DNA of 18,083 nucleotides from IMG/VR virus record IMGVR_UViG_2651869755_000020; one strand, written 5' to 3'. Source of the DNA: a virus (taxonomy: Duplodnaviria; Heunggongvirae; Uroviricota; Caudoviricetes). The notes below the pieces were generated by a model. It was not told the DNA's origin. It searched no databases and saw only the letters and a list, made by a program, of their open reading frames with translations. Positions 1 to 17,710 of this stretch are shown here, piece after piece (positions within the stretch are counted from its first letter, which is position 1; each line of letters starts with the position of its first letter). Made by a program: the position numbers and the translations under genes.

Positions 1-162
1 CCAGAGCCTGAGCCATTTGAAAATAACATTATCATTGACGCCATTTTCACGTGCAATCTGTGCAACACAAGCTCCAGGTTGTGATGCCAGTTCCACCATA
101 CGAAGTTTGAATTCATTCGAATAGTTTTTACGAGGTTCTTTTCGCCAGTCCTGTAATTCCAT
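1..162 (-). CDS. IS-type transposase helper protein (HTH_Tnp_1 / IS66-family TnpA-like), N-terminal 54 codons only; gene continues past the left window edge
   Basis: Reverse-strand ATG at 160-162 opens a frame translating MELQDWRKEPRKNYSNEFKLRMVELASQPGACVAQIARENGVNDNVIFKWLRLW, which stays open to position 1. The pattern (R.YS.EFK...V.....PGA.V..IAR..GV.DN....W) matches the helix-turn-helix OrfA/TnpA proteins of IS66/IS3-type elements as I recall them. Not in the supplied ORF track because it is truncated by the window edge. Confidence 0.45.
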   Translation of the reverse strand, partial: MELQDWRKEPRKNYSNEFKLRMVELASQPGACVAQIARENGVNDNVIFKWLRLW

Positions 163-215
163 ACTTAGATGTCCGTCTATATCAGATGGGCGTCTAAGTT
201 ACCAATTCTCGTCTG

Positions 216-1346: not shown

Positions 1347-1360
1347 TTTAAGGAGAGAGC

Positions 1361-2314: not shown

Positions 2315-2323
2315 GGAGGCGTT

Positions 2324-2662
2324 ATGGGAACCACTCAGCAGGTCATTCTGATCACAACCGTAACGGCAGGGGCAGCACTGGCACAGCAGCGTTTTGTCGG
2401 GGCAGATAATACCCCCTGTAAAGCCGGTGCCGCAGCGCTCGGGGTTGCCGAAGTGGATGCTGTTACCGGCGACAGCACGCCGGTGAGCGTTCTGGGCATT
2501 ATTGCTGTCGAGGCCGGGGCCGCTGTCAGCCGTGGTGTGGCTGTTCAGTCAGATGCTCAGGCCAGAGCCGTGCCGCAGTCCGGCGACGGTAAATCCTGTG
2601 GTATTGCACTTGATGAAGCCGGGGGTGAAGGCGACGTCATTCGTATCCTGCGCGGGGTGTGA
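2324..2662 (+). CDS. small head-associated protein (Ala/Gly/Val-rich; hypothetical, possible decoration or head-completion protein)
   Basis: 112-aa ORF with AAGGAGG RBS 6 nt upstream, 9 bp after the capsid gene stop. Composition is Gly/Ala/Val-rich. Function not recognised with confidence. Confidence 0.55.
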   Translation: MGTTQQVILITTVTAGAALAQQRFVGADNTPCKAGAAALGVAEVDAVTGDSTPVSVLGIIAVEAGAAVSRGVAVQSDAQARAVPQSGDGKSCGIALDEAGGEGDVIRILRGV

Positions 2663-2663
2663 C

Positions 2664-3110
2664 ATGTACTGCACCCTGGAGGATTTGCTTGCGCAGGTGC
2701 CGGAGCGGACGCTTATCGAACTCACCAGTGAAGAGATGGACTTCGACTCGCCTGCAACAGTGAATACCCGTGTGGTGGACAGCTGTATCCGCTATGCCGA
2801 CGAGCTGATTGATGCCCATCTGCGCGGACGCTATATCCTGCCACTGGCAGAGATACCGACTGTTCTGCGGGACATTGCCATCACGCTGGTCCGTTACCGG
2901 CTCTACGCCCGCCGCCCGGAAGGTGACCTCCCGGATACGGTGAAGGATGACCACAAAGAAGCGCTGCGGCAACTCAGGGAGTTACGTGATAACAGGCTCA
3001 CGCTGGGGCTGCCGTCCACTCAGAAAGATGTGCCTGAGCCTGGCGAGTTTCGTGTACGCAGTCGCCCGGCCACTTTCGGCGGTCGTGACGGTTTACTGGA
3101 GAAATACTGA
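2664..3110 (+). CDS. head-tail joining / neck protein (Mu gp36-position, DUF1320-like)
   Basis: ATG at 2664 lies 1 nt after the upstream stop (2660-2662) and is in frame with the track ORF 2502..3110. The earlier start would overlap the preceding gene by 160 bp, so the 148-aa version is preferred. Position matches Mu neck genes. Confidence 0.55.
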   Translation: MYCTLEDLLAQVPERTLIELTSEEMDFDSPATVNTRVVDSCIRYADELIDAHLRGRYILPLAEIPTVLRDIAITLVRYRLYARRPEGDLPDTVKDDHKEALRQLRELRDNRLTLGLPSTQKDVPEPGEFRVRSRPATFGGRDGLLEKY

Positions 3111-3574
3111 TGAACGTTCTGCCCGTCCTTGATGCGGTGCTGGCCCGGTTACGCGAGAAGCTGCCGCAACTGCAGGTGGAGTACTTCCCGGAGAAACCGG
3201 CTGAATATCGCCTGAACCATCCGGTTGGCGCGTTGCTGCTGAGCTATGCCGGTTCGCGCTTTGACAGGCCGGATGATACCGGTGCGGTGATCCAGTCTCA
3301 GACTATCCAGCTCTGCGTCACGGTGGTCTTCCGCCAGCTCAACGGTAAAAAAGGGGCGATTAATGTCCTGGATGCTGTCCGCCGCATTCTCGGTGGCCAC
3401 ACCCCGCCCGGGTGCCGCTGCCGTATCTGGCTGACCCGCGAGGTGTTTATCGGTGAAGTCAGGGGGCTGTGGCAATACGCCCTCGACTTCGCGACTGAAA
3501 GCATCTTTATCGAAGACAGCGATTTACCGTCCGGCCCGCTGTTAACCGAAGTGAACTATGAGGAAAGCGAGTGA
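3110..3574 (+). CDS. head/neck completion protein (Mu gp37-position)
   Basis: 154-aa ORF whose ATG overlaps the upstream stop (ATGA-type overlap at 3108-3112), indicating translational coupling within the operon. Confidence 0.55.
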   Translation: MNVLPVLDAVLARLREKLPQLQVEYFPEKPAEYRLNHPVGALLLSYAGSRFDRPDDTGAVIQSQTIQLCVTVVFRQLNGKKGAINVLDAVRRILGGHTPPGCRCRIWLTREVFIGEVRGLWQYALDFATESIFIEDSDLPSGPLLTEVNYEESE

Positions 3575-3825
3575 TGAAAGAATACCGCTATTCCGGCCCG
3601 GCCAGCGGCGTCACGCTGTCGGACGGAACCGAAATCCTGCTCTGGCCGGGGAAGACGGTTTCCCTGCCGGAGGAGCATGACTACGTGAAGGTACTGGTGG
3701 CGCTGAAGCATCTGACGCCGGTACCAGAAGATACTAAACCCGCCGTCACACCGGCTGTGCAGTCACCAAAGCGCAGAAGCAGCAGTGACAGCGAAGTGAA
3801 AACGGAGGACGCCCATGGCAGCTAA
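3574..3825 (+). CDS. small phage protein of unknown function (Mu gp38-position)
   Basis: ATG at 3574 with AGGAAA/GAGG upstream, overlapping the upstream stop. The track starts it at GTG 3571. C-terminal tail is Ser/Lys/Glu-rich. Overlaps the sheath gene start by 11 nt. Confidence 0.5.
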   Translation: MKEYRYSGPASGVTLSDGTEILLWPGKTVSLPEEHDYVKVLVALKHLTPVPEDTKPAVTPAVQSPKRRSSSDSEVKTEDAHGS

Positions 3826-5242
3826 CTATCTGCATGGTCCCGAAACCATTGAGGTGGAAAACGGAGCCCGCCCGGTTAAAACGGTGAAATCTGCCGTTAT
3901 TGGCCTGATTGGTACCGCCCCGATGGGGGATGTCAATACGCTGGTACAGTGCCTGTCTGAGAAAGACGCAGCGGCATTTGGCAGCCAGTTCACCGGCTTT
4001 ACCATTCCGCAGGCGCTGGATGCGATTTATGACCATGGTGCAGGCACCGTTCTGGTCATTAACGTCCTCGACCCGGCGAAACATAAAACGGCGATCGAGG
4101 ATGAGGTGGTTACCTTTGACAAATCGACAGGGCAGGCCAGACTGGCGCATCCGGTTGTCGCTAATGTGGTGGTGAAAAACAGTGAAGGCAGCACCACCCA
4201 CACGGCGAACACGGACTACCGTGTTGATGCGCAGGCGGGTGTGCTCACGAACCTGGGCAAGGCTATTGAGGCCGGTGGCAGCGTGAAGGTGAGCTATGAG
4301 TACGCGGACCCGTCGAAGGTGACTGCGGCGGACATCATCGGCGGGGTGAACAGCGCCGGAAACCGAACCGGCATGAAGCTGCTTAACGACAGCTTCAACC
4401 TGTACGGCTATTTCGCCAAAATTCTGATTGCGCCGGTGTTCTGCACCCAGAAGAGTGTCGCAGTTGAGCTTATCGCCATGGCAGAGAAGCTGGGCGCGGT
4501 AACCTACATTGATGCGCCTGTCGGTACCACCTTTGCACAGGCTCTGGCAGGTCGTGGCCCGGAAGGCACCATCAACTTCAATACCAGCTCCGACCGCGTC
4601 CGTCTGTGCTATCCGCATGTGAAGGTATATGACCCGGTGACAAACACAGAGCGTCTGGAGCCGCTCAGCCAGCGTGCAGCAGGTCTGCGTGCCAGAGTCG
4701 ATCTGGACAAGGGCTACTGGTGGTCATCCTCCAATCAGGAGATTCTGGGGATCACCGGCGTGGAGCGCCAGCTGTCCGCGATGATTGATGACCCGCAGAG
4801 TGAGGTGAACCTGCTTAACGAACAGGGGATCACCACGGTATTCAGCAGTTACGGCAGCGGCCTTCGTCTGTGGGGTAACCGGACGGCAGCATGGCCAACG
4901 GTCACCCATATGCGTAACTTTGAGAACGTTCGCCGCACCGGTGATGTGATCAACGAGTCCATTCGTTATTTCAGCCAGCAGTACATCGACATGCCGATTA
5001 CTCAGGCGCTGATTGATGCACTGACGGAGTCGGTCAACGCCTACGGTCGCAAAATGACTGGTGATGGTGCGGTACTGGGCTTCCGTTGCTGGTTTGATCC
5101 GGCCCGCAATCCGGAGACGGAGCTGGCCGCCGGGCACCTGTTGCTGAGCTACAAATATACGCCACCACCGCCGCTGGAGCGACTGACGTTTGAGACTGAG
5201 ATCACCTCGGAATACCTGTTAACCCTGAAAGGGGGCAACTGA
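3815..5242 (+). CDS. contractile tail sheath protein
   Basis: 475-aa ORF with GGAGG RBS at 3803-3807. Size and position (immediately before a roughly 170-aa tube gene) are diagnostic of myovirus sheath proteins. Confidence 0.85.
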   Translation: MAANYLHGPETIEVENGARPVKTVKSAVIGLIGTAPMGDVNTLVQCLSEKDAAAFGSQFTGFTIPQALDAIYDHGAGTVLVINVLDPAKHKTAIEDEVVTFDKSTGQARLAHPVVANVVVKNSEGSTTHTANTDYRVDAQAGVLTNLGKAIEAGGSVKVSYEYADPSKVTAADIIGGVNSAGNRTGMKLLNDSFNLYGYFAKILIAPVFCTQKSVAVELIAMAEKLGAVTYIDAPVGTTFAQALAGRGPEGTINFNTSSDRVRLCYPHVKVYDPVTNTERLEPLSQRAAGLRARVDLDKGYWWSSSNQEILGITGVERQLSAMIDDPQSEVNLLNEQGITTVFSSYGSGLRLWGNRTAAWPTVTHMRNFENVRRTGDVINESIRYFSQQYIDMPITQALIDALTESVNAYGRKMTGDGAVLGFRCWFDPARNPETELAAGHLLLSYKYTPPPPLERLTFETEITSEYLLTLKGGN

Positions 5243-5763
5243 TGTCAAAGATTGAGATAAACCGCATCACGAATGCCAACATCTATCTGGATGGTACTAA
5301 CCTGCTGGGACGGGCTGAGGAAGTCAAACTCCCCGATGTCTCCATGATTATGCAGGAACACAAGGCGCTGGGGATGGTGGGTAAGGTGGAACTCCCGGCT
5401 GGTTTTGACAAGCTGGAAGGCGAAATCAAATGGAACAGCTTTTACCGCGATGCGATGCTGTCTGCCGCGAACCCGTACAGGTCGCTGGCACTGCAGTGTC
5501 GTTCCAGCGTCCAGCGCTACAGCTCGCAGGGGCTGATTGACGAAATCCCGCTGGTCACCTTCCTGACGATTATGTTCAAGAAGAACCCGCTGGGGACGTT
5601 CAAACAGCACGAGAACGCCGAGTTCTCCAGTAGCTTCACCTGCACGTATATCAGACAGGTACTGGATGGTGAAGAGCTGCTGCAACTGGACTATCTGGCC
5701 AACATCTTCCGGGTCGGCGGTGTTGATCAACTGACTGACTACCGTATCAATATCGGGGGCTGA
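5242..5763 (+). CDS. tail tube protein
   Basis: 173-aa ORF whose start overlaps the sheath stop. Classic sheath-tube gene pair. Confidence 0.8.
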   Translation: MSKIEINRITNANIYLDGTNLLGRAEEVKLPDVSMIMQEHKALGMVGKVELPAGFDKLEGEIKWNSFYRDAMLSAANPYRSLALQCRSSVQRYSSQGLIDEIPLVTFLTIMFKKNPLGTFKQHENAEFSSSFTCTYIRQVLDGEELLQLDYLANIFRVGGVDQLTDYRINIGG

Positions 5764-5765
5764 CG

Positions 5766-6047
5766 GTGAGTGTTGAACTGACGGATAAAGGAGGACGATG
5801 TGCGGCACTGGGCATGTCAAATGGTACGTGGTTTACCCTCCTTGATATTCCGGGGGTGGAAACCCTTTTTAATACCCGTAAAACCAATGACCCGATTGAC
5901 TGCACACGTTCAAAGGCCCGCAAACTGGCGGATTTGATTGAAGCATGGGAGCCTCCCGACCACTGGTTCTCCGGCATCGGCAAATCTGAGGGAAAGACGC
6001 TTCTCATCGCTTTCCTGCGTAACTGCAAGGGGTTTCGCACTTGCTGA
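5766..6047 (+). CDS. small hypothetical protein (about 77-93 aa, four Cys); possible accessory (moron-like) gene between tube and chaperone
   Basis: ORF in operon orientation starting at GTG 5766 or in-frame ATG 5814 (AAGGAGGA at 5787-5794). Followed by a hairpin terminator candidate. No family recognised. A 97-aa ORF on the opposite strand covers the same DNA, so the coding strand is not certain. Confidence 0.35.
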   Translation: MSVELTDKGGRCAALGMSNGTWFTLLDIPGVETLFNTRKTNDPIDCTRSKARKLADLIEAWEPPDHWFSGIGKSEGKTLLIAFLRNCKGFRTC

Positions 6048-6053
6048 CATCAC

Positions 6054-6080
6054 AGGGGCTCCGGCCCCTTCTTCTTAATC
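6054..6080 (+). terminator. candidate intrinsic terminator (GC-rich hairpin AGGGGC-TCCG-GCCCCT followed by TTCTTCTT)
   Basis: Perfect 5-6 bp G/C stem at 6054-6069 followed by a T-rich run interrupted by C, directly after the small ORF stop at 6047. Confidence 0.4.
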
Positions 6081-6144
6081 TCCTTTAATATCCGTCACGC
6101 GCTTCTCCCGACATACTGCCCTGAACTTACACAGGAGCACAATC

Positions 6145-6480
6145 ATGTCACAGACCCCATCCGATACTTTTAAATTGTCTTATCCCTTCACCACTGCTGC
6201 AGGCACCAGAATTGAGCTGGTTGAACTGAAACGCCTGACGGTAAAAGACCTGAAGCAGGTGCGCAAAATCAGCAAAAACCCGGCAGACTGGGACGAACCG
6301 CTGATTGCCCGCAGTACTGGTCTTCTCCCGGAAGATCTCGACAATATGGATCTGGCTGATTACCTGCAGTTACAGAAACGATTTCAGCTCATCACGGGGA
6401 TGGGTGAGAGCAACCAGGGCGCTGACGCAGGCGCAGGGGCTGCTGGCGAGATGGTTCCGGTTTCAGCCGGGGGAGATTGA
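6145..6480 (+). CDS. tail assembly chaperone (position equivalent to lambda G / P2 E / Mu gp41)
   Basis: 111-aa ORF with AGGAG RBS 8 nt upstream, located between the tube and tape measure genes. Acidic protein, as expected for tape-measure chaperones. Confidence 0.6.
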   Translation: MSQTPSDTFKLSYPFTTAAGTRIELVELKRLTVKDLKQVRKISKNPADWDEPLIARSTGLLPEDLDNMDLADYLQLQKRFQLITGMGESNQGADAGAGAAGEMVPVSAGGD

Positions 6481-6562
6481 TGCCCTCGATACTGACGATC
6501 TGGAGATGTGGCTGGAGCAGGCTGAAGAGCAAATCAAAAGCGAGTACGGCGACAAATCATAG
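6305..6562 (+). CDS. overlapping second frame; candidate frameshift extension of the tail assembly chaperone
   Basis: Open frame overlapping 6305-6480 in the +1 frame relative to the chaperone and continuing 27 codons beyond its stop (...RFQPGEIDALDTDDLEMWLEQAEEQIKSEYGDKS). Protein-like acidic tail. Position matches the conserved chaperone frameshift of tailed phages. Confidence 0.35.
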   Translation: MPAVLVFSRKISTIWIWLITCSYRNDFSSSRGWVRATRALTQAQGLLARWFRFQPGEIDALDTDDLEMWLEQAEEQIKSEYGDKS

Positions 6563-6637
6563 TACAGACAGCCGCCAGTAGCGGCTGTTCTGCGTTATCC
6601 CCTCACGTCTTTTCACCTTCCCCGGAGGTTAACCACT

Positions 6638-9600
6638 ATGTCGGGACAGTTTTCAGTCGGCGTTGTTATCGGCGGGATGATTGGCAGCACATTCCGTTCT
6701 GCAATGAGCGGTACCCGCCGTGCGCTTGATTCCCTGAGCGATACCTCACGCCGCCTGCAGGAACGTCAGAACGCTTTAACCCGTGCAACAGAACGTTATG
6801 GTCAACTGGGTTCTTCCCGGATGCAGCATCTCAACAGCGAGCTGCTGCGGGTAAGCCGCACCATGGAGCAAATTGAGCGCCAGCAGCGCCGTCTGTCAGC
6901 GGCATCCGCTACCAGTGATGCGCTGAAAGCTAACCGCATGGCGCTGTATGGTCAGGGGATTGAAGCGTATGGCATGGCACAGACTGTTTATCATACGGTT
7001 TCCCCTGCCGTTCAGCAGTCCATGTCTTTTCAGGACAAAATGATTGATATGTCGATCACCGCAAAATATGACAATAAAACGCGGGATGCACTTGCCGGAC
7101 AGATAAAAGGCTGGGCGCTTAAATACAATCAGTATCAGGATGAGCTGCAGGAGGCGGTGGGTTCACTCATCAGCGACAATATTGATAATGTGTCAGATAT
7201 CGGTTTTCTGATGCCGGATATTGCCCGCGCGGCAACGGCAACACGCACGTCTGCTCAGGACTGGGCAAAAGTGGCCGCAGTCTGGCAAAACTCCCTGAAA
7301 GGTGCGGCCAGAGATTTTGGTGCCGTTCAGAATATTATGGCTTATGCCGGTGACCAGGGGTCATTTGAAATCCCGGATCAGGTCAAGTGGATGCAGTCCC
7401 TGGCCCCAATGATGGCGGGTCTTGCCAGTGGAAAAGAGGCTGTTGCTGAAATCGGGGCCAGTCTCCAGATAGCAAAAATCGGTGCAGGTTCCACCGACGA
7501 AGCAGCCAATAATTTTAAAAACTTTCTTACCAAAATTTTTGCCCGCGATACTCAGAAACAGTTTGCTGATCTGGGTATTGATTTGCAGGGATCTATTGCG
7601 AGTTATAAAGCTGCGGGGATCTCTCCGATTGAAGGGATGTTGAGTGTTATAGAACGTTACCTCAATGCCAAAAGCCCCGAAGCGCTGGCCGGCTTCAAAT
7701 CAGCCATGAAAATAAAGAATGATACGGCAAGAGATGAGGCACTTCAGGCTCTGGCGAAAAACTTTGGTCTGGGCGATATGTTCGCGGATATGCAGGTCAT
7801 GGCATTTATCCGCCCGATGCTGGCCAACATGGACAGATATCGAGAGATCCGTGCCGGTGCTCTCAGGGCTGCGGATAACGATTTGCTTGCCAGTGCTTAT
7901 GATCAGCGGCTGAAATCTCCCCTTGAAGCCACTAAAACACTTATGGTCAGCAGTCGCGATCTGGCAATTACGCTGGGCGATCAATTAGCTCCATCTTTTA
8001 TTTCTCTGACTCAGGAACTGCTCCCACTCATTCAGGGGACAAAACACTGGGTAGCGACTCACCCGCAATTTGTCAGTGGGGCTTTTAAGCTCATCAGTGC
8101 GCTCCTTGCGATTAAGATAGCGACTATTGGTCTCAAACTGGGGCTGAATCTCCTTATTTCCCCCTTTGTGAACGTCTGGAAAACTACTGTTTTACTCCGG
8201 ACCAACTGGCATCGACTGACTACCGCACTCGGAGAAGGTGGCAAATTACGCTGGCTTGTCACTGGATTCAGCCGACTGACCAGCGGAGGACTGAAACTCA
8301 GCAAAGTTCTGGCGGGCAGCCTCGTTCGCGGTTTTATGAGCGCTGCACGTGCCGTTCTCTGGATTGGGCGAGCGCTGATGATGAATCCCATCGGTCTCGT
8401 TATCACCGCTGTCGCGACAGCAGCTTACCTTATCTACCGCAACTGGGGGGCTGTCAGTGGTTGGTTTAAACAGCGCTGGGCTGACATTCAGGAAGCCTTT
8501 AACGGCGGCATTGTGGGAATTGGTAAGTTGCTGATTAACTGGTCGCCGGCAGGCCTGCTCTATAAAGCCTTTGCGGCTGCGCTGAAATATTTCGGCGTTG
8601 CTCTGCCGGCAAAGTTCACCGACTTCGGTGGCCATCTTATCGACGGTCTGATTAACGGTATCAAAAGCAAATGGGGGTCGCTCAAATCCAGTGTAACCGG
8701 AATGGGTGACAGCATCAGTAGCTGGTTTAAACAGCGCTGGGCTGACATTCAGGAAGCCTTTAACGGCGGCATTGTGGGAATTGGTAAGTTGCTGATTAAC
8801 TGGTCGCCGGCAGGCCTGCTCTATAAAGCCTTTGCGGCTGCGCTGAAATATTTCGGCGTTGCTCTGCCGGCAAAGTTCACCGACTTCGGTGGCCATCTTA
8901 TCGACGGTCTGATTAACGGTATCAAAAACAAATGGGGGTCGCTCAAATCCAGTGTAACCGGAATGGGTGACAGCATCAGTAGCTGGTTTAAACAGTGCTG
9001 GGCTGACATTCAGGAAGCCTTTAACGGCGGTATCGCGGGAACTGGTAAGCTGCTGATTAACTGGTCGCCGGCAGGTCTGCTCTATAAAGCCTTTGCAGCT
9101 GCGCTGAAATATCTTGGTGTTGATCTGCCGGCAAAGTTCACCGACTTCGGTGGCCATCTTGTCGACGGTCTGATTAACGGTATCAAAAACAAATGGGAGT
9201 CGCTCAAATCCAGTGTAACCGGAATGGGTGACAGCATCAGTGGCTGGTTCAGCGAAAAGCTGGGCATTCATTCGCCGAGCCGCGTGTTTATGGGCTTTGG
9301 TGACAATATCGCGCAGGGGGCCGCCATTGGCCTGCAGCGGACCACTCCGCTTGCAGCTCTGGCCGGGCAGCGAATGGCCAGTGAACTGCTCCCCAGAATG
9401 CCCGTGAGCATTCAGGGGCCAGAAATACGGGATAACACTTCAGGTGTTCGCTTCAGTATGCCGTTGCCCGATATCAATGGGTTTATGTCGTCTGCTAAAA
9501 ATGCGATCGGAGCCGTAATCAATAGTTTGTCTTCCATGCCCGTTATTCCGCTCTCCACCCGGGCATCGATTTTACCAGGGCAACGTCTGGCAAATGAGAT

Positions 9601-9850
9601 GACACCGGATGTTCCCCGTATCCCCTCGCCTGAAATCCTGGCTGCCGGATATTCAGGCCGTGGTGCAGCTGCAACCGGCGGTGGAACGTCTGGTGGTATC
9701 CAGGTCAGCTTTAATCCTCAGTTTTTCCTCAATGGCAGGGAAACCACAGCGCCTGCAGGACTGACTGGTGCCCTGAATATGAGTCTGCATGAGCTGGAAA
9801 AAATGCTGGAGCGTCTGCTGGCTCAGAAACAACGTAAGGAGTACCGCTGA
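6638..9850 (+). CDS. tail tape measure protein
   Basis: 1070-aa ORF with GGAGG RBS, the largest gene, directly downstream of the chaperone pair. Has a long helical N-terminal half and internal tandem repeats. Start of the downstream gene overlaps its stop. Confidence 0.9.
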   Translation: MSGQFSVGVVIGGMIGSTFRSAMSGTRRALDSLSDTSRRLQERQNALTRATERYGQLGSSRMQHLNSELLRVSRTMEQIERQQRRLSAASATSDALKANRMALYGQGIEAYGMAQTVYHTVSPAVQQSMSFQDKMIDMSITAKYDNKTRDALAGQIKGWALKYNQYQDELQEAVGSLISDNIDNVSDIGFLMPDIARAATATRTSAQDWAKVAAVWQNSLKGAARDFGAVQNIMAYAGDQGSFEIPDQVKWMQSLAPMMAGLASGKEAVAEIGASLQIAKIGAGSTDEAANNFKNFLTKIFARDTQKQFADLGIDLQGSIASYKAAGISPIEGMLSVIERYLNAKSPEALAGFKSAMKIKNDTARDEALQALAKNFGLGDMFADMQVMAFIRPMLANMDRYREIRAGALRAADNDLLASAYDQRLKSPLEATKTLMVSSRDLAITLGDQLAPSFISLTQELLPLIQGTKHWVATHPQFVSGAFKLISALLAIKIATIGLKLGLNLLISPFVNVWKTTVLLRTNWHRLTTALGEGGKLRWLVTGFSRLTSGGLKLSKVLAGSLVRGFMSAARAVLWIGRALMMNPIGLVITAVATAAYLIYRNWGAVSGWFKQRWADIQEAFNGGIVGIGKLLINWSPAGLLYKAFAAALKYFGVALPAKFTDFGGHLIDGLINGIKSKWGSLKSSVTGMGDSISSWFKQRWADIQEAFNGGIVGIGKLLINWSPAGLLYKAFAAALKYFGVALPAKFTDFGGHLIDGLINGIKNKWGSLKSSVTGMGDSISSWFKQCWADIQEAFNGGIAGTGKLLINWSPAGLLYKAFAAALKYLGVDLPAKFTDFGGHLVDGLINGIKNKWESLKSSVTGMGDSISGWFSEKLGIHSPSRVFMGFGDNIAQGAAIGLQRTTPLAALAGQRMASELLPRMPVSIQGPEIRDNTSGVRFSMPLPDINGFMSSAKNAIGAVINSLSSMPVIPLSTRASILPGQRLANEMTPDVPRIPSPEILAAGYSGRGAAATGGGTSGGIQVSFNPQFFLNGRETTAPAGLTGALNMSLHELEKMLERLLAQKQRKEYR
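8462..9244 (+). repeat. three tandem 261-bp (87-codon) in-frame repeats inside the tape measure gene
   Basis: Unit begins TGGTTTAAACAGCGCTGGGCTGACATTCAGGAAGCC at 8462, 8723 and 8984. Copies 1 and 2 differ at a single base (AAAAGC vs AAAAAC). Copy 3 carries about a dozen substitutions. Confidence 0.9.
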
Positions 9851-10734
9851 TGTTTGCCGTACTGGGTGATATTGAGTTTGAGCTGATTACCTACTGGGAC
9901 GGCTTCGAGGCCACGTTCGGCGTCGATTATGCGGAGCATGCCCGCATCGGGGGTAAGCCTGGCCTGCAGTTCGTCGGCGACAGGCTGGACGAAATCCAGA
10001 TAACTCTGGTTTTCCATCAGCATTATTGTGTACCCGATGTGGAGCTGGCGAGACTGCGAACAGCCATGAAAGCCCATCAGGCACTGGCGCTGGTCTTCGG
10101 CAACGGTGACTATCGCGGCTGGTTCGTGATTACCGATGTGACTGCAACCAGCGAGCAGACTGACAGTACCGGCAACGTGCTGGCTGTCAGTGCCACCGTG
10201 TCTCTCCGGGAATACACCGGTGACCCGAAAAATCCTCTGCAACCACCGGCAATACGCACGAAGCTCCCGGGTGTCGGGGCGGTCTCCGGTGCCATTCCTT
10301 CACCTTCCGGGGTGGCGCAGTTCATCCGCAACGGCGTCAACTATGCGAAACAGGCGCAGTCTGTACTCCAGACCACTATCAGCGCCGTTCGAGTGACACA
10401 GAAAATGAAGGATAACCCCGTTGTCGCACTGACCCGTGTGCCGGGGCTGATGAGCGGACTGGGTAATATCTCCGGGGCTCTGGGGAAAAGTGTTCCGGCG
10501 TTTAACGCACTCTCTGAATCCATGCCCGATGCCATCAGTCTGGCCAGAACAGCCAGCGAAGCAGCCACGTATGTACAGCAGGCACAGTCTGCGCTGAGTG
10601 GTGTGGACAAAAGAAATATTGCAGGTGCTCTGGATACCGTTTCCGGGCAGCTTAACGCCGTCGGAACAGCATTCAACCGCATGTCTCCGGGATTAAGTGC
10701 AATGGCCGCCAGAATACTGACGAGGAGTGTGTGA
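9850..10734 (+). CDS. tail protein with P2 gpU-like N-terminal domain (Mu gpN / DNA-circularisation protein position)
   Basis: 294-aa ORF with start overlapping the TMP stop. N-terminus (MFAVLGDIEFEL...GKPGLQFVGDRLDEIQITLVFH...GNGDYRGWFVITDV...SLREY) follows the gpU family pattern as I recall it. Sits immediately after the tape measure gene as in Mu. Confidence 0.6.
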   Translation: MFAVLGDIEFELITYWDGFEATFGVDYAEHARIGGKPGLQFVGDRLDEIQITLVFHQHYCVPDVELARLRTAMKAHQALALVFGNGDYRGWFVITDVTATSEQTDSTGNVLAVSATVSLREYTGDPKNPLQPPAIRTKLPGVGAVSGAIPSPSGVAQFIRNGVNYAKQAQSVLQTTISAVRVTQKMKDNPVVALTRVPGLMSGLGNISGALGKSVPAFNALSESMPDAISLARTASEAATYVQQAQSALSGVDKRNIAGALDTVSGQLNAVGTAFNRMSPGLSAMAARILTRSV

Positions 10735-10946
10735 TGTTTCTTGAACATGTTACCCGTGACGGAGAGCGCTGGGATTCGCTGGCATGGCAGTACTACGGTG
10801 ACCCGCTGGGCTATCCCCGGATTATTGCCGCCAATCCGCACGTGGCCATCACGCCGGTGCTGCCCTCCGGGCTGTTGTTACTGATCCCGGTGATTGAGGC
10901 TGAAGAAGCCCGTACAGAAGAGGATATTGCCCCATGGCTGAGATAA
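10731..10946 (+). CDS. tail protein X-like small protein (LysM-like fold family)
   Basis: 71-aa ORF with GAGGAG RBS and ATGA overlap with the upstream stop. Sequence (RWDSLAWQYYGDPLGYPRIIAANPHVA...LPSGLLLLIP) resembles P2 gpX-type proteins that precede gpD homologues. Confidence 0.55.
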   Translation: MMFLEHVTRDGERWDSLAWQYYGDPLGYPRIIAANPHVAITPVLPSGLLLLIPVIEAEEARTEEDIAPWLR

Positions 10947-12106
10947 ACAGCACTGCGCAAGTCACATCAGCGTTAACCGGCGTCAGCGATGTGCTGACAC
11001 CGGTGTTCACTCTGTGGTATCTGCAGAAAAACATCACCTCTGATATCGCGCCTTATGTCACCCGTGTGACCTGGAGCGATAACATCAAAAATGAGTCCGA
11101 TACCATTGAGGTGGAGCTGGACGACACCGATGGCCGCTGGCTGGATAAGTGGTATCCGGGCAAGGGTGACACGCTGACGCTGAAAATGGGCTATCAGGAC
11201 GAGAAGCTGCTGTCCTGCGGTACGTTCTCTATAGACGAGATCGAAGTGAGTTCGCCCGCTTCCGTTGTTTCTATCCGTGGGGTGGCCACCTCGGTTAACA
11301 GTGCCCTGCGGACTAAAACCAGTCGTGGTTTTGAGAACACCACGCTGGCAGCTGTTGCGGGGCGGATTGCCAGAAAGCACCGGCTGAAACTGGTGGGCAG
11401 CATTGAGTCCATCAGAATCGACCGGGTGACCCAGTATGCTGAAACCGACGTGGGTTTTCTGCGCCGGCTGGCCAGCGAGTATGGTTATGCAGTGAAAGTG
11501 GTCAGTGACCAGCTGATTTTTTCTCATCTGGCCACACTGCGCAGTCAGGAGCCGGTCAGGCAGTTAAAACCGCAGGATGTGGCCCGCTTTTCCCTGCGTG
11601 ACACCATCAACCGGGTCTATAAATCTGCAAAGGTAAAACACCAGAAAAGCAGCAGTAAAAAACTGATCGTCTACGAAGCTGATGGTGGTACCCGTGAAAG
11701 CGACAAAAAGCTCAAAGGTGGTAAGGTTACCAGCGCTGACTCACTTAAAGTTAACAGCCGCGTCAGCGACCCGGACAGTGCCCGGATTAAAGCGGATTCA
11801 GCACTGGCCAGACATAACGAATACCAGCAGAACGGCTCCCTGACGCTGACGGGAACACCTCAACTGACAGCAGGCAACAAAATTGAACTGGTGGGTTTTG
11901 GGCAGTTATCCGGGCCATGGCTCATAACCACTGCCCGCCATGCGTTTGACCGTAACAGCGGCTACACCACAGAGCTGGAAGTGGCACGGGGGCCGATCAC
12001 ACAGGGCAAGGCGAAGAAAGGTAAAAAAATCGGCAAAACCCGGATGCTGACCATCTATAAACCGGACGGCAGCACGTCCACAGTAATAAGAGAGAAGAAA
12101 AAATGA
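10934..12106 (+). CDS. tail/baseplate hub protein, P2 gpD-like (Mu gpP position)
   Basis: 390-aa ORF following the X-like gene and preceding the spike gene. Lys-rich C-terminus. Order X-D-V-W-J-I matches Mu/P2-type baseplate modules. Confidence 0.65.
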   Translation: MAEINSTAQVTSALTGVSDVLTPVFTLWYLQKNITSDIAPYVTRVTWSDNIKNESDTIEVELDDTDGRWLDKWYPGKGDTLTLKMGYQDEKLLSCGTFSIDEIEVSSPASVVSIRGVATSVNSALRTKTSRGFENTTLAAVAGRIARKHRLKLVGSIESIRIDRVTQYAETDVGFLRRLASEYGYAVKVVSDQLIFSHLATLRSQEPVRQLKPQDVARFSLRDTINRVYKSAKVKHQKSSSKKLIVYEADGGTRESDKKLKGGKVTSADSLKVNSRVSDPDSARIKADSALARHNEYQQNGSLTLTGTPQLTAGNKIELVGFGQLSGPWLITTARHAFDRNSGYTTELEVARGPITQGKAKKGKKIGKTRMLTIYKPDGSTSTVIREKKK

Positions 12107-12699
12107 CTGGTGTCACTCGTCAGGTCGGTACGGTCAGTGCCGTTGATGCCGACAGGGTTCAGGCCCGCGTTCGTCTGCCTGAATGCGATAACCTGCGCAC
12201 AAACTGGCTTAACGTGCTGCAGCGCAATACCCAGGATAACAAAGATTACTGGCTCCCTGACGTGGGGGAGCAGGTTGAGGTGCTGCTCGATGCCAACGGC
12301 GAGGATGGTGTTATTCTGGGCGCGGTGTATTCAGACGTCGATAAACCACCGTTCAGTGACAAAAATATCCGGGGAACCCGGTTTGCTGATGGTGCAGAGT
12401 ACAGCTACAACCGGAAGACGCACACTCTGATCATCCGGGGCGGCATTGAGCATATTGTCATTGAGTGTGGTGCTGATGTGGTATTGAAAACACAGAAAGC
12501 CACGATTGACGCACCGGAAACCGAACTTACCGGAGATCTGCGTGTCAGGGGTAAGCTGATTTACGAAGGAGGCATGGCGGGTTCTGGTGGTGAAGGTGTT
12601 ACCGCGACCATCCATGGCAATATCGAGATTAAAGGGAATGCCCATGCCACGGGCAGTATGTTGTCTGATGGCGAAAACTCCAGCCACCACTCCCACTGA
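12103..12699 (+). CDS. baseplate spike / assembly protein V-like (Mu gp45 position)
   Basis: 198-aa ORF with start overlapping the upstream stop. Size and sequence character (OB-fold-like N-terminus, Gly-rich C-terminal tip ending SSHHSH) fit gpV-type central spike proteins. Confidence 0.7.
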   Translation: MTGVTRQVGTVSAVDADRVQARVRLPECDNLRTNWLNVLQRNTQDNKDYWLPDVGEQVEVLLDANGEDGVILGAVYSDVDKPPFSDKNIRGTRFADGAEYSYNRKTHTLIIRGGIEHIVIECGADVVLKTQKATIDAPETELTGDLRVRGKLIYEGGMAGSGGEGVTATIHGNIEIKGNAHATGSMLSDGENSSHHSH

Positions 12700-12753
12700 G
12701 CTTTTTAAACGCCTTTAATATCAGCGTTCCCGCACGGGGGCAATACTGCCCCC

Positions 12754-13101
12754 ATGAAAACAACCTCAGTATTCTGGCAACCGACCCTGCAGGCTCCCGG
12801 CGAAATTGTCCGGGGGCTGGATGATATCCGGCAGGCGATTCAAATTATCCTGCGGACTCCCCGCGGCAGCGACCCGCATCGCCCGGAGTTCGGCAGCAAT
12901 CTGCATCTTTATATCGACTGGCCTGTAGACCGGGCCATTCCGCATGTGGTGCGCGAATCCGTCGATGCCATCCGACGCTGGGAGCCCCGCTGCCAGCTTA
13001 TGTCAGTTAAACCCGCCGTCGACGGCGAACATCTTACGCTCCGGGTGAGCTGGAAAGGCTCAGACGGACAGACCCGGACTCAGGAGTTGCTATGGCGCTG
13101 A
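12754..13101 (+). CDS. baseplate wedge protein, gpW / T4 gp25-like
   Basis: 115-aa ORF. Size and position between the spike and the J-like gene are typical of gp25/W lysozyme-fold baseplate proteins. Downstream gene overlaps its 3' end. Confidence 0.7.
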   Translation: MKTTSVFWQPTLQAPGEIVRGLDDIRQAIQIILRTPRGSDPHRPEFGSNLHLYIDWPVDRAIPHVVRESVDAIRRWEPRCQLMSVKPAVDGEHLTLRVSWKGSDGQTRTQELLWR

Positions 13102-14195
13102 CAGAACCCGATTTTATTGAACGCGATGCCGACAAAATCACGGCAGAAATGATTGCGAAGTATGAAGCGGATACCGGCAAAACGCTGTACCCGGCACAGG
13201 CAGAACGTCTGCTGATTGATCTGTGGGCCTATCGCGAAATGCTGGTCAGGGTTGCGGTACAGGAGGCAGCAAAGCAGAATCTGGTCGCCTTTTCACGAGA
13301 GCCGATGATTGATTACCTCGGAGAACTGGTTGGTGTATACCGCCTTGCCGCGCAGCCTGCCACCACCACACTTCAGTTCTCTGTGGATGAGGCACTGACC
13401 ATTGATGTGCTGATCCCGGCAGGCACCCGCGTCAGCGCTTCCGACAGCGTTATTTTTGCCACCGATACAGATGTGGTACTGAAGGCCGGATTGCTGCTGG
13501 TCAATGTCACGTCCACCTGTACCGAACCCGGTACCGCTGGTAACGGCTGGCAACCTGCGCAGGTCAGTCAGTTACTCGATGAGATTGATAACGTCGACCT
13601 GCTGGTGAGCAATCTGACGGCCAGTTCCGGCGGTTCAGAACAGGAAGACGATGACAGGCTCCGGGAGCGTATCAGGCTGGCCCCGGAGTCATTCACCAAT
13701 GCCGGAAGCCGTGGCGCATACCGCTTTCATGCCATGCAGGCCCATCCCAACATTGTCGATGTTGCTGTGCTTTCCCCGGTTCCCGGGACCGTAGATCTGT
13801 ATCCGCTGCTCAGTACCGGTCTGCCGGACGGCGGTGTTCTCACGCTGGTAGAGAGTTTCTGCTCTGATGAGAAAGTCAGGCCACTCACTGATACAGTGCG
13901 GGCTAAAACACCAGTGAAGGTGGATTACACCATTGAAGCCAGGATTACGATCTATCGTGATCAGGATGCCAGGTCTGTAAAAGATGCCGCTAACAGCGCC
14001 ATACAGAACTGGGTGGCATCACGTGCCGCCACGCTGGGGCGTGATATTGTCCCCAGCCAGATTATCAGTGCATTGTCCGTTTCCGGGGTGTACCAGGTTG
14101 AACTGGTGACACCGGCACTGAGGGTGGTGGCAGAAAACGAATGGGCAAACTGTACGGCGATCACACTTAACATGAGTGGAGTGTCTGATGACTGA
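13092..14195 (+). CDS. baseplate protein J-like (Mu gp47 position)
   Basis: 367-aa ORF with AGGAG RBS, overlapping the upstream and downstream genes. Size and position are typical of Baseplate_J family proteins. Confidence 0.75.
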   Translation: MALTEPDFIERDADKITAEMIAKYEADTGKTLYPAQAERLLIDLWAYREMLVRVAVQEAAKQNLVAFSREPMIDYLGELVGVYRLAAQPATTTLQFSVDEALTIDVLIPAGTRVSASDSVIFATDTDVVLKAGLLLVNVTSTCTEPGTAGNGWQPAQVSQLLDEIDNVDLLVSNLTASSGGSEQEDDDRLRERIRLAPESFTNAGSRGAYRFHAMQAHPNIVDVAVLSPVPGTVDLYPLLSTGLPDGGVLTLVESFCSDEKVRPLTDTVRAKTPVKVDYTIEARITIYRDQDARSVKDAANSAIQNWVASRAATLGRDIVPSQIISALSVSGVYQVELVTPALRVVAENEWANCTAITLNMSGVSDD

Positions 14196-14766
14196 GCCAT
14201 TACAACTCCCGCCACCGCTTGAGGGTGATATCAGTCTCAGGACGCTGGGAAGACTGGCAGGGCGGCTGGATAACATCGACCTGAGCGTACTGATGGTCTT
14301 TCTCGTCGATATCGTCGACAGTTCTGCGCTGCCATGGCTGGGCGAGCAGTTCTCACTGTCTGGCGATGGCTGGGAGCTGGCGGAATCGGACGATGTTCGC
14401 CGCATGCTTATAAAAGCAGCCATCGAACTACACCGGTATAAAGGGACGCCGTGGTCAATCCGGGAAGTTATCCGCCGTTTTGGCTTTGGTGAAGTGGATC
14501 TGATTGAAGGCACAGGTCGTCTCAGTTACGACGGCAATCGCAGCTATAACGGACTGTTTGTTCATGGAGATGCAGCCGCCTGGGCGGTTTATCGCGTTAT
14601 TCTGAAACAGCCCATTACTAACGATCAGGCCGCGATGCTGCGTCAGACGCTCGCTGCATTTGCACCGGCCCGCTGCCATCTGGCCAGCCTGGAGTATCAG
14701 TCTGTGGCCATTCGCTATAACAATACCGCCATCCATGATGGCAGTTATAACCACGGGAGCAGTTGA
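14188..14766 (+). CDS. baseplate/tail protein I-like (Mu gp48 position)
   Basis: ATG at 14188 (MTEPLQLPPPLEGD...) is in frame with the track ORF that begins at GTG 14176. It overlaps the upstream stop by 8 nt. 192 aa, immediately before the tail fiber gene as in P2 (I-H) and Mu (R-S). Confidence 0.65.
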   Translation: MTEPLQLPPPLEGDISLRTLGRLAGRLDNIDLSVLMVFLVDIVDSSALPWLGEQFSLSGDGWELAESDDVRRMLIKAAIELHRYKGTPWSIREVIRRFGFGEVDLIEGTGRLSYDGNRSYNGLFVHGDAAAWAVYRVILKQPITNDQAAMLRQTLAAFAPARCHLASLEYQSVAIRYNNTAIHDGSYNHGSS

Positions 14767-14768
14767 TT

Positions 14769-16391
14769 ATGGGAAACCTGAATGAAACAGAAAAGTGGGA
14801 AGAAAAAATCTATCAACTGGAGACATCAGATCCGGTTCTGGGTGGTGCTGACGGGATATCAAATCGAGCCCCCCGGCAACTGGCAAACAGGACGAAATGG
14901 CTGAAGAAAAAAACGGAGGAAGCCGCACAGTCACTGGCTGAACACGTACGTTCCCGTAACCACCCGGACGCGACACTGACAGCTAAGGGGTTCACCCAAC
15001 TGAGCAGTGCCACCAACAGCACCTCTGAAACGCTGGCCGCCACACCAAAAGCCGTCAAGGCTGCATACGACCTTGCAGCCGGCAAGGCACCCGTCAGTCA
15101 CACTCACCCGTGGAGTCAGATAACGGGAGTGCCTGCTGCCTCGCTGACGGCAAAAGGCACCGTACAGCTGAGCAGTGCCACGGACAGTCAATCAGAAACT
15201 GAGGCTGCCACGCCGAAGGCTGTGAAAATCGCGTATGATCTGGCCCGGGGAAAATACACAGCCCAGGATGCAACAACGACCCGTAAAGGGATCGTACAAC
15301 TGAGCAGTGCCACCAACAGCACCTCTGAAACGCTGGCCGCCACACCAAAGGCCGTCAAGGCTGCATATGACCTGGCTGCCGGCAAGGCCCCCGTCAGCCA
15401 CACTCACCCGTGGAGTCAGATAACGGGAGTGCCTGCTGCCTCGCTGACGGCAAAAGGCACCGTACAACTGAGCAGCGCCACGGACAGTCAATCAGAAACT
15501 GAGGCTGCCACGCCGAAGGCGGTCAAGGCTGCATACGACCTTGCAGCCGGCAAGGCGCCCGTCAGCCACACTCACCCGTGGAGTCAGATAACGGGAGTGC
15601 CTGCTGCCTCGCTGACGGCAAAAGGCACCATACAATTGAGCAGTGCCATCAACAGCACGTCTGAAATACTGGCCGCCACACCGAAAGCGGTCAAGGCTGC
15701 ATACGATCTGGCAAACGGAAAACAACCGGCAGATGCCACGCTCACTGCTCTGGCAGGACTTGCCACTGCAGCAGATCGGTTGCCTTATTTTACCGGAGCA
15801 GACCGCGCAGCGCTGGCAACCCTTACAGCTATTGGTCGCGCTATTATCGCTAAGGGCAGTATAAAAGATGTCCTCAATTACCTTGGTTTGGGGGAAGGCT
15901 CTGCACTGCCTGTTGGTGTGCCTGTTCCATGGCCCACCGCCACACCGCCAGCAGGCTGGTTAAAGTGCGACGGGCGCGCCTTTACAAAAGAACAATATCC
16001 TGTTCTGGCCAGAGTCTACCCGACCCTCCGTCTTCCCGATTTGCGCGGTGAGTTTATCCGTGGATGGGACGACGGGCGCAAAGTTGATACGGGGCGTTCA
16101 TTGCTAAGTGGTCAGGCTGCAACATTTATTCGTACAGCTTTGCAGGATTATTACGGTTACGATCTGAATACTAATGTCAAAGTAGGTATCGCTTTTGCTA
16201 CTGCTGATTCTGTTATAACCGTTGGAAACCCAGCTAATCCTAAAGCAGGAAAAAATAGCGATTATGTTCCTGCATCAGCAGATAACTCTATAACGGGTAT
16301 TCAAAGGACAGCGGAGGATAATTTTACCGGGGCATGGATATCAATGCGCCCCCGCAATGTTGCGTTTAATTACATCGTAAGGGCCGCATAA
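14769..16391 (+). CDS. tail fiber protein with internal phage-fiber repeats and a C-terminal collar-type receptor-binding domain
   Basis: 540-aa ORF from ATG 14769 (GGGAG RBS about 10 nt upstream; the track starts at TTG 14763). Five copies of the motif LTAKG-x-QLSSAT-x-S-x-SET-x-AATPKAVK-x-AYDLA, typical of lambda Stf / Mu S / P2 H fibers. C-terminal region (PWPTATPPAGWLKCDGRAF...LPDLRGEFIRGWDDGR) resembles the phage tail collar domain. Confidence 0.85.
   Translation: MGNLNETEKWEEKIYQLETSDPVLGGADGISNRAPRQLANRTKWLKKKTEEAAQSLAEHVRSRNHPDATLTAKGFTQLSSATNSTSETLAATPKAVKAAYDLAAGKAPVSHTHPWSQITGVPAASLTAKGTVQLSSATDSQSETEAATPKAVKIAYDLARGKYTAQDATTTRKGIVQLSSATNSTSETLAATPKAVKAAYDLAAGKAPVSHTHPWSQITGVPAASLTAKGTVQLSSATDSQSETEAATPKAVKAAYDLAAGKAPVSHTHPWSQITGVPAASLTAKGTIQLSSAINSTSEILAATPKAVKAAYDLANGKQPADATLTALAGLATAADRLPYFTGADRAALATLTAIGRAIIAKGSIKDVLNYLGLGEGSALPVGVPVPWPTATPPAGWLKCDGRAFTKEQYPVLARVYPTLRLPDLRGEFIRGWDDGRKVDTGRSLLSGQAATFIRTALQDYYGYDLNTNVKVGIAFATADSVITVGNPANPKAGKNSDYVPASADNSITGIQRTAEDNFTGAWISMRPRNVAFNYIVRAA
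14976..15720 (+). repeat. in-frame direct repeats inside the tail fiber gene (five fiber-repeat units; two about 220-bp stretches nearly identical)
   Basis: Units start near 14976, 15144, 15281, 15445 and 15613. Stretches beginning CAACTGAGCAGTGCCACCAACAGCACCTCTGAAACG at 14997 and 15298 remain near-identical for about 220 bp. Confidence 0.85.
15881..15922 (+). repeat. left inverted repeat of the invertible cassette; overlaps a hix/gix-like crossover site (about 15871-15896, core TT at 15883-15884)
   Basis: CCTTGGTTTGGGGGAAGGCTCTGCACTGCCTGTTGGTGTGCC. Its reverse complement matches 16416-16457 at 40 of 42 positions. The half-sites around the TT core resemble the 12-2-12 recombination sites of Hin/Gin/Cin/Pin invertases. 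Confidence 0.7.
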
Positions 16392-16415
16392 AAACGTTGG
16401 TTTAGGAGAAGGCTC

Positions 16416-16457
16416 GGCACACCAACAGGCAATGCAGAGCCTTCCCCCAAACCAACG
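16416..16457 (-). repeat. right inverted repeat of the invertible cassette (core AA at 16454-16455), about 65 bp upstream of the invertase start
   Basis: GGCACACCAACAGGCAATGCAGAGCCTTCCCCCAAACCAACG is the reverse complement of the left repeat with 2 mismatches. Placement next to the invertase gene mirrors gixR/gin and hixR/hin. Confidence 0.7.
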
Positions 16458-16521
16458 TTTATCTCTCAAATCCTCCCCACATTATCTCAGTACTTTAACC
16501 ACTCAAAAGGGAGTATTTTTA

Positions 16522-17094
16522 ATGCTGATTGGCTACATACGTGTGTCAACAAATGACCAAAACACAGATTTGCAACGCAATGCATTAATGTGCGCAGGAT
16601 GTGAACAGATTTTTGAGGACAAAATGAGCGGAACCAAGTCGGAACGACCAGGCCTGAAACGCGCTTTAAAGTGCCTTAAAAGAGGGGATACATTGGTGGT
16701 CTGGAAGCTGGATCGGTTGGGTAGAAGAATGAAACACCTCATTGCTCTCACAGAAGAGCTACGCGCAAAAGGTGTCAATTTTCGCAGTCTGACGGATTCA
16801 ATCGATACCAGCACTCCGATGGGAAGGTTCTTTTTTCATATGATGGGTGCACTGGCAGAAATGGAGCGTGAACTGATAGTTGAGCGCACGCTGGCAGGAC
16901 TGGCTGCTGCGCGAGCACAAGGAAGAGTTGGAGGACGTCGCCCGAAACTGACGAAGGAGCAGCATGAGCAGATCGCAAGATTGCTCCAGAAAGGGTATGA
17001 CAGAAAGCGGCTGGCAATTATCTATGATATTGGACTGTCAACGATCTACCGCTACCACCCTGTTGGGACTGTCATAACGCAACCTGAAATGTAA
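16522..17094 (+). CDS. site-specific DNA invertase, serine recombinase of the Gin/Pin/Cin/Hin family
   Basis: 190-aa ORF from ATG 16522 (AAAGGGAG RBS). Begins MLIGYIRVSTNDQNTDLQRNAL..., with GDTLVVWKLDRLGR and the C-terminal HTH, near-identical in pattern to Gin/Pin as recalled. The track start at 16432 adds 30 non-conserved residues and overlaps the inverted repeat, so it is rejected. Confidence 0.9.
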   Translation: MLIGYIRVSTNDQNTDLQRNALMCAGCEQIFEDKMSGTKSERPGLKRALKCLKRGDTLVVWKLDRLGRRMKHLIALTEELRAKGVNFRSLTDSIDTSTPMGRFFFHMMGALAEMERELIVERTLAGLAAARAQGRVGGRRPKLTKEQHEQIARLLQKGYDRKRLAIIYDIGLSTIYRYHPVGTVITQPEM

Positions 17095-17172
17095 TTCTTT
17101 TTCAAATAATGAAACGCCGCGTGGATGCCATTTATCGCACAAGATAGAGTGCATTTATCGCGCGGCGCATCA
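17095..17172 (+). mobile_element. putative right terminus (attR end) of the Mu-like prophage with repeated transposase-binding-like motifs
   Basis: Two copies of GCATTTATCGC (17128-17141 and 17149-17163). Terminal sequence ...TTTATCGCGCGGCGCATCA ends in CA and matches my recollection of the Mu right end (...TTTTTCGTGCGCCGCTTCA) at about 15 of 19 positions. Host prpR coding sequence begins immediately after. Confidence 0.5.
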
Positions 17173-17710
17173 CGTCGGCGGGCATCAGCCTGTTCCGGTA
17201 GATGTACGGGTCATTAGCGCCACTCACTGCAATCTGGAAGAAGATATGCAGCAAGGACGTTTTCGCCGTGATCTGTTTTATCGGCTGAGTATTTTGCGTC
17301 TGCAATTGCCACCACTGCGCGAGCGGGTGGCGGATATTCTTCCGCTGGCGGAAAGCTTTTTGAAAGTGTCTCTGGCGGCGCTCTCCGCCCCATTTTCTGC
17401 TGCATTACGCCAGGGGTTACAGGCAAGTGAAACTGTGCTGCTGCACTACGACTGGCCAAGCAATATTCGTGAACTGCGCAATATGATGGAACGACTGGCG
17501 CTGTTTTTAAGTGTGGAACCGACGCCGGATTTAACGCCGCAGTTTATGCAACTGCTACTGCCGGAACTGGCGCGCGAGTCGGCGAAAACTCCCGCTCCAC
17601 GCTTACTGACACCACAACAGGCACTGGAGAAATTTAATGGCGATAAAACAGCAGCGGCGAATTATTTAGGCATCAGCCGGACGACGTTCTGGCGGCGGCT
17701 GAAAAGCTGA
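17173..17710 (+). pseudogene. prpR: 3' fragment (about 180 codons) of the sigma-54-dependent propionate regulator gene, cut by the prophage insertion
   Basis: The frame translates from about 17173 as ...VGGHQPVPVDVRVISATHCNLEEDMQQGRFRRDLFYRL..., the conserved end of a sigma-54 activator AAA+ domain, then a C-terminal Fis-type HTH (NYLGISRTTFWRRLKS). The same frame upstream of about 17170 is not activator-like. Convergent yahO follows after 97 bp, as in the E. coli yahO-prpR arrangement I recall. Confidence 0.7.

Follow-up and report, generated by a model that had tools for sequence, protein, structure and literature searches.

Loss of the tail-fibre chaperone gene by deletion in a BcepMu-like prophage of Escherichia coli that retains a residual fibre switch

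We analysed an 18,083-nucleotide stretch of viral DNA (hereafter, the window) and observed that its compact right arm is the product of a 1,555-bp deletion, which removed the gene for the tail-fibre chaperone together with two alternative fibre tips. The reading that we favour, with a probability of roughly 85%, is that the chaperone gene was deleted from a decaying, IS-hit BcepMu-like prophage in which a residual fibre switch is still active, and that the absence of mom/com is ancestral.

RESULTS

The window contains the late arm of a transposable prophage related to BcepMu

The window is filled by the late arm of a transposable, BcepMu-like prophage that is inserted in prpR of an E. coli host. 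The ORFs at 1361-14766 specify a capsid protein and, for the tail and baseplate, a P2-type set comprising sheath, tube, assembly chaperone, tape measure, U, X, D, V, W, J and I. Pfam matches to GpU, X, GPD, V, gp25, J and Tail_P2_I were obtained in the tail/baseplate module, and the J protein is 55% identical to gp50 of BcepMu. An internal direct duplication with an offset of 261 nt was also seen in the tape measure gene (8454-8988 versus 8715-9249, 96.6% identity). The features used in the following analyses are:

1-247, minus strand: end of ISEc23 (IS66 family), which interrupts the head peptidase gene within its first ~9 codons; the target duplication (8 bp) occupies 248-255
14769-16391, plus strand: tail fibre gene, in which site A joins the constant part Sc (Phage_fiber_2 repeats) to the variable tip Sv1
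15880-15922, plus strand: site A, gix-like, within the fibre ORF and including the left arm of the inverted repeat; core ACC-TT-GGT at 15880-15887
15883-16458, no strand: residual invertible segment of 576 bp with Sv1 only, found inverted in MMC-J-0105
16394-16420, plus strand: site B, gix-like, directly after the fibre stop; 16394-16418 is site B plus the first Sv2 bases (deletion stub)
16416-16418, no strand: deletion junction, 3-bp GGC microhomology, where the blocks shared with KS21 (locus L002) end at 3219 and resume at 4775
16416-16458, minus strand: site C, gix-like, right inverted-repeat arm; 16419-16458 is the Sv3' stub plus site C
16522-17094, plus strand: Gin-family serine DNA invertase of 190 aa (Resolvase and HTH_7; phrog_125 DNA invertase; match to Mu Gin structures)
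17095-17175, plus strand: right end of the transposable prophage, ending in ...CA, with repeated ATTTATCGC motifs
17176-17710, plus strand: 3' fragment of host prpR (Pfam AAA_lid_14 and HTH_8); in the PGAP annotation, the prophage lies between a partial prpR and a partial sigma-54 regulator

The window aligned with the genome of E. coli LC-1302-2020 in two blocks (99.99% and 99.7%) that overlap in the fibre repeats, and the sole structural difference between the two is one 300-nt fibre repeat unit. Outside the window, the left part of the LC-1302-2020 prophage carries, on the opposite strand, the early genes Mor, GemA and Gam, a MuB-like ATPase and a DDE transposase (PGAP), which is a BcepMu-type layout. 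PhiKM, classified as a Bcepmuvirus, is 99.8% identical to the window in the head region, and the insertion sites of the relatives involve at least 10 different flanking genes. The window phage is, thus, a BcepMu-like transposable phage and not a Mu derivative. PhiKM, KP12_2 (both recorded only in part) and 503046 (23 kb, lacking annotation) were considered as isolated, infective relatives having the full module, but their records are uninformative on infectivity.

On the host side, yahO lies 3' of the prpR fragment. prpR, the activator of the propionate catabolism operon, is split by the prophage (window 17173-17710; 775-1830 in locus L006), and induction of prpBCDE is probably lost in the strains having the split gene.

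The fibre ends in a gp37-type collar tip

The fibre protein matched Phage_fiber_2 over five repeats (1e-93) and, at its C-terminus, Collar (5.5e-15); when the Sv1 tip was searched alone, Collar (PF07484) was obtained at 6e-16. The tip also matched the T4 gp37 tip (PDB 2XGF; E 2e-15), with both the collar and the C-terminal NIAFNYIVR strand aligned. By these domain and structure matches, we assign Sv1 to the T4 gp37 type of collar tip.

The shaft (14963-15712) is built of near-identical 168/300-nt repeat units. The window fibre, at 540 aa, has one 300-nt unit fewer than that of the complete genomes (640 aa), which is either a real variation or a collapse of short reads. Outside the window, only two contigs (20-50 kb) were found to encode exactly this 540-aa protein; one of them, a 27.6-kb contig from a draft assembly, shows the same yahO/yahN context.

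No chaperone gene is present in the window or in the prophage

The preliminary description, made from the sequence of the window, had stated that only recombination sites and the invertase follow the fibre stop, and that a tail-fibre chaperone gene is missing. Both observations hold. The 130 bp between the stop codon (16389-16391) and the invertase start (16522) contain recombination-site remnants and no credible ORF; apart from frame artefacts (26-42 aa), the only reading frame there is the invertase ORF extended upstream in frame. The single Rfam match in this gap was not significant (E 0.07; bit score 23, where the gathering score is 71) and is due to a palindrome. We therefore rejected a small chaperone or RNA hidden in this gap or in the 81 bp after the invertase, as the ORFs are spurious (at most 42 aa) and the Rfam match is below threshold. 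Simple scans for an intrinsic terminator or promoter in the fibre-invertase gap found none.

Searching more widely, no ORF and no Pfam match for Caudo_TAP (PF02413) was obtained in the window. In tblastn searches with the Tfa proteins of the relatives against the window and the whole LC-1302-2020 prophage, nothing scored better than E 6, and the PGAP annotation of that prophage has no tfa. The search of the rest of the prophage thus gave no chaperone gene either.

A 1,555-bp deletion removed two tip cassettes and tfa

The preliminary description had proposed a comparison with related genomes. In this comparison, the relatives were found to carry an Sv2-tfa-Sv3' block that is absent from the window. 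In KS21, the order is Sc-Sv1, a promoterless tip cassette Sv2, tfa, an inverted tip cassette Sv3' and the invertase, and its Tfa is a protein of 204 aa with a Caudo_TAP match at 3.5e-28. Window positions 14700-16418 correspond to KS21 L002 1501-3219 (99.9%), where site B opens the Sv2-tfa cassette, and 16416-17172 correspond to L002 4775-5531 (100%). Exactly 1,555 bp, holding Sv2, tfa and Sv3', are missing from the window. Of these two tip cassettes, stubs are kept, 25 nt from the start of Sv2 and 40 nt from that of Sv3'; because these stubs are truncated, we conclude that a deletion occurred in the window lineage and not an insertion in the relatives. FDAARGOS_1303 and LC-1302-2020 share one fibre protein accession (WP_074441576.1). 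In FDAARGOS_1303, where the insertion site differs, Sv2-tfa-Sv3'-invertase comes next, and this layout is the parental arrangement. The recombination sites noted earlier after the fibre stop are indeed present; what had been missed is that they are scars of deleted cassettes and that the segment is still inverting.

The parental module (KS21 L002 3195-4814; also L001, L018, L062, L080 and L087, the last from Klebsiella KP12_2) has two to three collar tips and a single tfa, and loci of Klebsiella, Photorhabdus and Rosenbergiella have the same layout with one tfa. The parental tip that adjoins the invertase is convergent with tfa; judging from the orientations of the sites, it is never expressed alongside a sense-oriented chaperone gene.

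Next, we assessed how widespread the compact form is. A megablast search of 5,426 complete E. coli genomes yielded 36 with a coverage of 80% or more of the fibre-invertase region, and the fibre-invertase interval was 1.0-1.6 kb longer in all but one of them. A tail fibre assembly protein was annotated in 39 of the 40 relatives among the matches listed. With a 351-bp junction probe, the compact junction was found contiguous in only one of the 5,426 genomes, LC-1302-2020. The match of MMC-J-0105 to the probe crosses the junction and is lost at site C; this genome has the same deletion and the same prpR insertion. Among these complete genomes, the deletion is therefore present only in LC-1302-2020 and MMC-J-0105, both at prpR.

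An assembly artefact, in which short reads collapsed over the long inverted repeats of the inversion region, would also yield a compact arm. The exact 540-aa fibre occurs only on contigs of 20-50 kb, including the 27.6-kb draft-assembly contig, and the fibre repeat unit missing relative to the complete genomes could itself be a collapsed repeat. However, two complete chromosomes (from Italy and Israel) share the same junction base for base, one in each orientation, with flanks that are otherwise colinear. On this ground we rejected the artefact, which we consider extremely improbable.

We also considered that the invertase itself had excised the block by site-specific recombination, as the prophage has an active invertase and three gix-like sites. 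The positions and orientations of these sites speak against it. Sites B and C are mutually inverted, so that recombination between them inverts rather than deletes; both are intact, and the junction falls 20-40 nt from the crossover dinucleotides. We rejected this origin too, and give it hardly any credence. The deletion endpoints lie inside the 216-218-bp inverted homologous starts of Sv2 and Sv3', off the crossover dinucleotides. The inverted sites and the position of the junction together point to illegitimate recombination, rather than an invertase reaction, as the mechanism of the deletion.

We propose the following course of events. The long inverted repeat probably promoted an illegitimate recombination at the 3-bp microhomology, with endpoints 25 and 40 nt into the Sv2 and Sv3' starts. 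The resulting 1,555-bp deletion took away both cassettes, Sv2 and Sv3', and with them the sole gene for a tail-fibre assembly chaperone; it left the 576-bp Sv1 segment, which the active invertase flips between the states of a full-length and a tip-less fibre.

The residual Sv1 segment is still inverted by the invertase

The invertase matched Resolvase (8e-51) and HTH_7 (1e-12) in Pfam, and its residues 1-181 matched the Mu Gin structures 4M6F/3UJ3 with E 2e-93. Its DNA is 75% identical to Mu gin across 387 bp (query 64-448), a match that begins 1 nt past the start codon. The gix-like sites have the form AAACC/G-TN-GGTTT, with a core that resembles Mu gixL/gixR, and the 43-nt arms of sites A and C (15880-15922 and 16416-16458) are 95% complementary.

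In MMC-J-0105, the stretch corresponding to window 15883-16458 is inverted (99.65% identity) and the flanks are colinear. As the 576-bp segment has been flipped in this strain, the invertase is still active. The MMC-J-0105 fibre has 499 aa and stops after the constant part, ending in ...LPVGVPSLLLNQRFYAALTM*; in this inverted state, a 20-residue out-of-cassette tail precedes the stop and Sv1 is promoterless on the other strand. The switch of the prpR lineage therefore toggles between a full-length and a tip-less, truncated fibre. A Mu-style pair of alternative functional fibre C-termini, each with its chaperone, is absent, as only Sv1 is present and there is no tfa.

The deletion also brought sites B and C face to face, forming a palindrome with 28-bp arms right after the fibre stop (16392-16460). 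Folded as an RNA hairpin, it has an energy of -39 kcal/mol (z -6.1). It might affect the read-through into the invertase gene or the stability of the DNA.

The right end is compact in the whole family

Three relatives inserted at different loci are identical up to ...GCGCATCA and diverge beyond this point. As these three independent insertions share the sequence up to ...GCGCGGCGCATCA and then diverge, the phage end is placed at 17175. The terminus, earlier taken to be 78 bp, is accordingly 81 bp long. The prophage begins with TGATTAG... on the left and ends with ...GCATCA on the right, and the target sequence duplicated around it in prpR is the 6-bp CGTCGG.

The 81 bp beyond the invertase contain no com/mom and leave no room for it. 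The absence of mom/com noted in the preliminary description is thus correct as an observation; its use as a sign of reduction is wrong, since BcepMu and all the relatives examined are also without these genes. In all the relatives examined, the phage end lies 81 bp after the invertase, and BcepMu has neither mom/com nor an invertase. Absence of mom/com is an ancestral trait of the family and not a loss.

Dependence of the Sv1 tip on a chaperone

The chaperone (gp38/Tfa) is reported to be essential for gp37 folding, lambda Tfa can replace gp38, and in the gp37 tip family the chaperone gene is reported to lie always directly downstream (PMC9659904). We surveyed 79 Enterobacterales loci from many genera, in which 91 collar tips had enough downstream sequence. 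A co-oriented tfa directly follows the tip in 64 of these 91. The remaining 27 have no adjacent co-oriented tfa; no tfa is nearby in 19 of the 91 and only a convergent one in 4. Among the 11 nearest non-Escherichia homologues of the variable part Sv1, 10 have an adjacent tfa. These Tfa proteins form one full-length family, with 44-58% identity to the KS21 Tfa. Since Sv1 belongs to the gp37-type class that normally travels with Tfa, maturation of the fibre is probably impaired in the compact form. Judged from sequence, loss of the chaperone probably cripples the fibre assembly. Against this, a Tfa encoded by a second prophage of the host might act in trans.

Five of these 27 are in P2-like clusters (L013, L036, L038, L043 and L049; about 4440-4640 in each) from Rahnella, Pluralibacter and uncultured Enterobacterales, where the tail sheath gene comes directly after a collar-tipped fibre and no tfa intervenes. 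They may represent either tailocin clusters or collar tips that fold without a chaperone.

It could be argued that Sv1 trimerises without any Tfa, so that the compact form would be a functional one-tip ON/OFF fibre switch with no defect in the fibre. Consistent with this idea, the Sv1 cassette of the relatives (also in L007) runs directly into the next cassette and has no tfa of its own. Sv3 is likewise without its own tfa and, from the layout, appears to be always antisense to tfa when expressed. The survey counts of collar tips that have no tfa nearby or a convergent one only, and the fibre-to-sheath order of the five P2-like clusters, are in the same direction. However, an adjacent tfa accompanies almost all the nearest Sv1 homologues of other genera, and the tip is of the gp37 type, a class with established chaperone dependence (PMC9659904). 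In the KS21 state, moreover, tfa is located 520 nt downstream of Sv1 in sense orientation and could serve it, and the compact form is confined to a single lineage that is also IS-damaged. We consider this alternative unlikely; a chaperone-independent tip is neither needed nor favoured when set against the deletion reading. A broader version, in which the short gp37-like collar tips (Sv1 and Sv3) of the enterobacterial BcepMu-like family fold without a dedicated Tfa and the deletion derivative is a working minimal tip ON/OFF switch rather than a host-range switch, appears slightly more doubtful still.

BcepMu was also tried as an infective precedent lacking tfa and was rejected. As its fibre has no collar domain, the missing tfa of BcepMu is uninformative for the Sv1 tip.

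The prpR lineage shows signs of decay

We return to the favoured reading, in which the chaperone was deleted from a decaying prophage. ISEc23 is inserted at the start of the head peptidase gene, where its tnpA, tnpB and transposase are annotated (PGAP). Its borders are defined by the correspondence with PhiKM (window 248-1500 to PhiKM 5131-6383; L006 20201-20565 to PhiKM 4774-5138), and the insertion is common to LC-1302-2020 and MMC-J-0105. The ORF that remains at 216-1346 is an in-frame fusion starting within the IS sequence; the IS presumably affects the expression of the head gene. MMC-J-0105 (L086 33301-34514) has an additional insertion of the IS3 family that splits the tape measure gene, which shows the ongoing decay of the prpR lineage.

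The chaperone loss and the IS in the head peptidase gene occur in the same lineage, and the prophage is for this reason most likely a decaying, non-infective remnant. We infer a functional defect of both the fibre and the prophage from these lesions. The earlier suggestion of a reduced, possibly defective derivative is therefore upheld as far as the chaperone is concerned, given the 1,555-bp deletion, its restriction to a single prpR lineage and the IS in the head gene; it does not extend to mom/com.

DISCUSSION

The Mu-type right arm without a chaperone gene described here seems unusual, yet it is a scar in a decaying prophage and no evidence for a new strategy of fibre assembly. It provides a natural example of a Gin-type switch that has remained active after losing the alternative exon, so that the fibre toggles between a complete and a truncated form. 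The prophage family to which it belongs is widespread in E. coli and Klebsiella, and with its two to three tips and one chaperone gene it offers a simple test case for the need of gp37-like tips for Tfa.

The arrangement is a degenerate Gin-type invertible fibre module, of a known kind, on a BcepMu-like prophage. As in the Mu G segment with Gin, there is a Gin-family invertase, gix-like sites of which one is inside the fibre ORF, and exchange of the fibre C-terminus by inversion, and in both the invertase gene lies immediately to the right of the invertible segment. In Mu, however, each of the two tips is accompanied by a chaperone of its own (U or U'), and com/mom separates gin from the end, whereas the parental family of the window has three collar-type tips, one tfa and no com/mom, and the window itself has one tip and no tfa. 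The tips in the window are also of the gp37-type collar, and the backbone is BcepMu-like rather than Mu-like.

With T4 gp37 and gp38, and with lambda Stf and Tfa, the window tip shares the collar and the NIAFNYIVR strand. In those systems the chaperone gene normally lies directly downstream, whereas the window has none, and its tip (~160 aa) is much shorter than theirs.

The likeness to the Bcepmuvirus group (BcepMu, phiE255 and PhiKM) extends to the P2-like tail/baseplate order V, W, J, I, H, the lack of mom/com at the right end, the Mor/GemA/Gam/transposase early arm that is inverted relative to Mu, and the many chromosomal insertion sites. BcepMu, on the other hand, has no collar-type fibre; its gp52 fibre has no Pfam match and is followed by an acyltransferase. 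The enterobacterial branch carries a Gin-type inversion module, which BcepMu does not. A parallel to the stacked tips is the Min system of plasmid p15B, which has more than two crossover sites and stacked alternative cassettes for the fibre C-terminus that can be permuted; in the window, by comparison, only one cassette survives.
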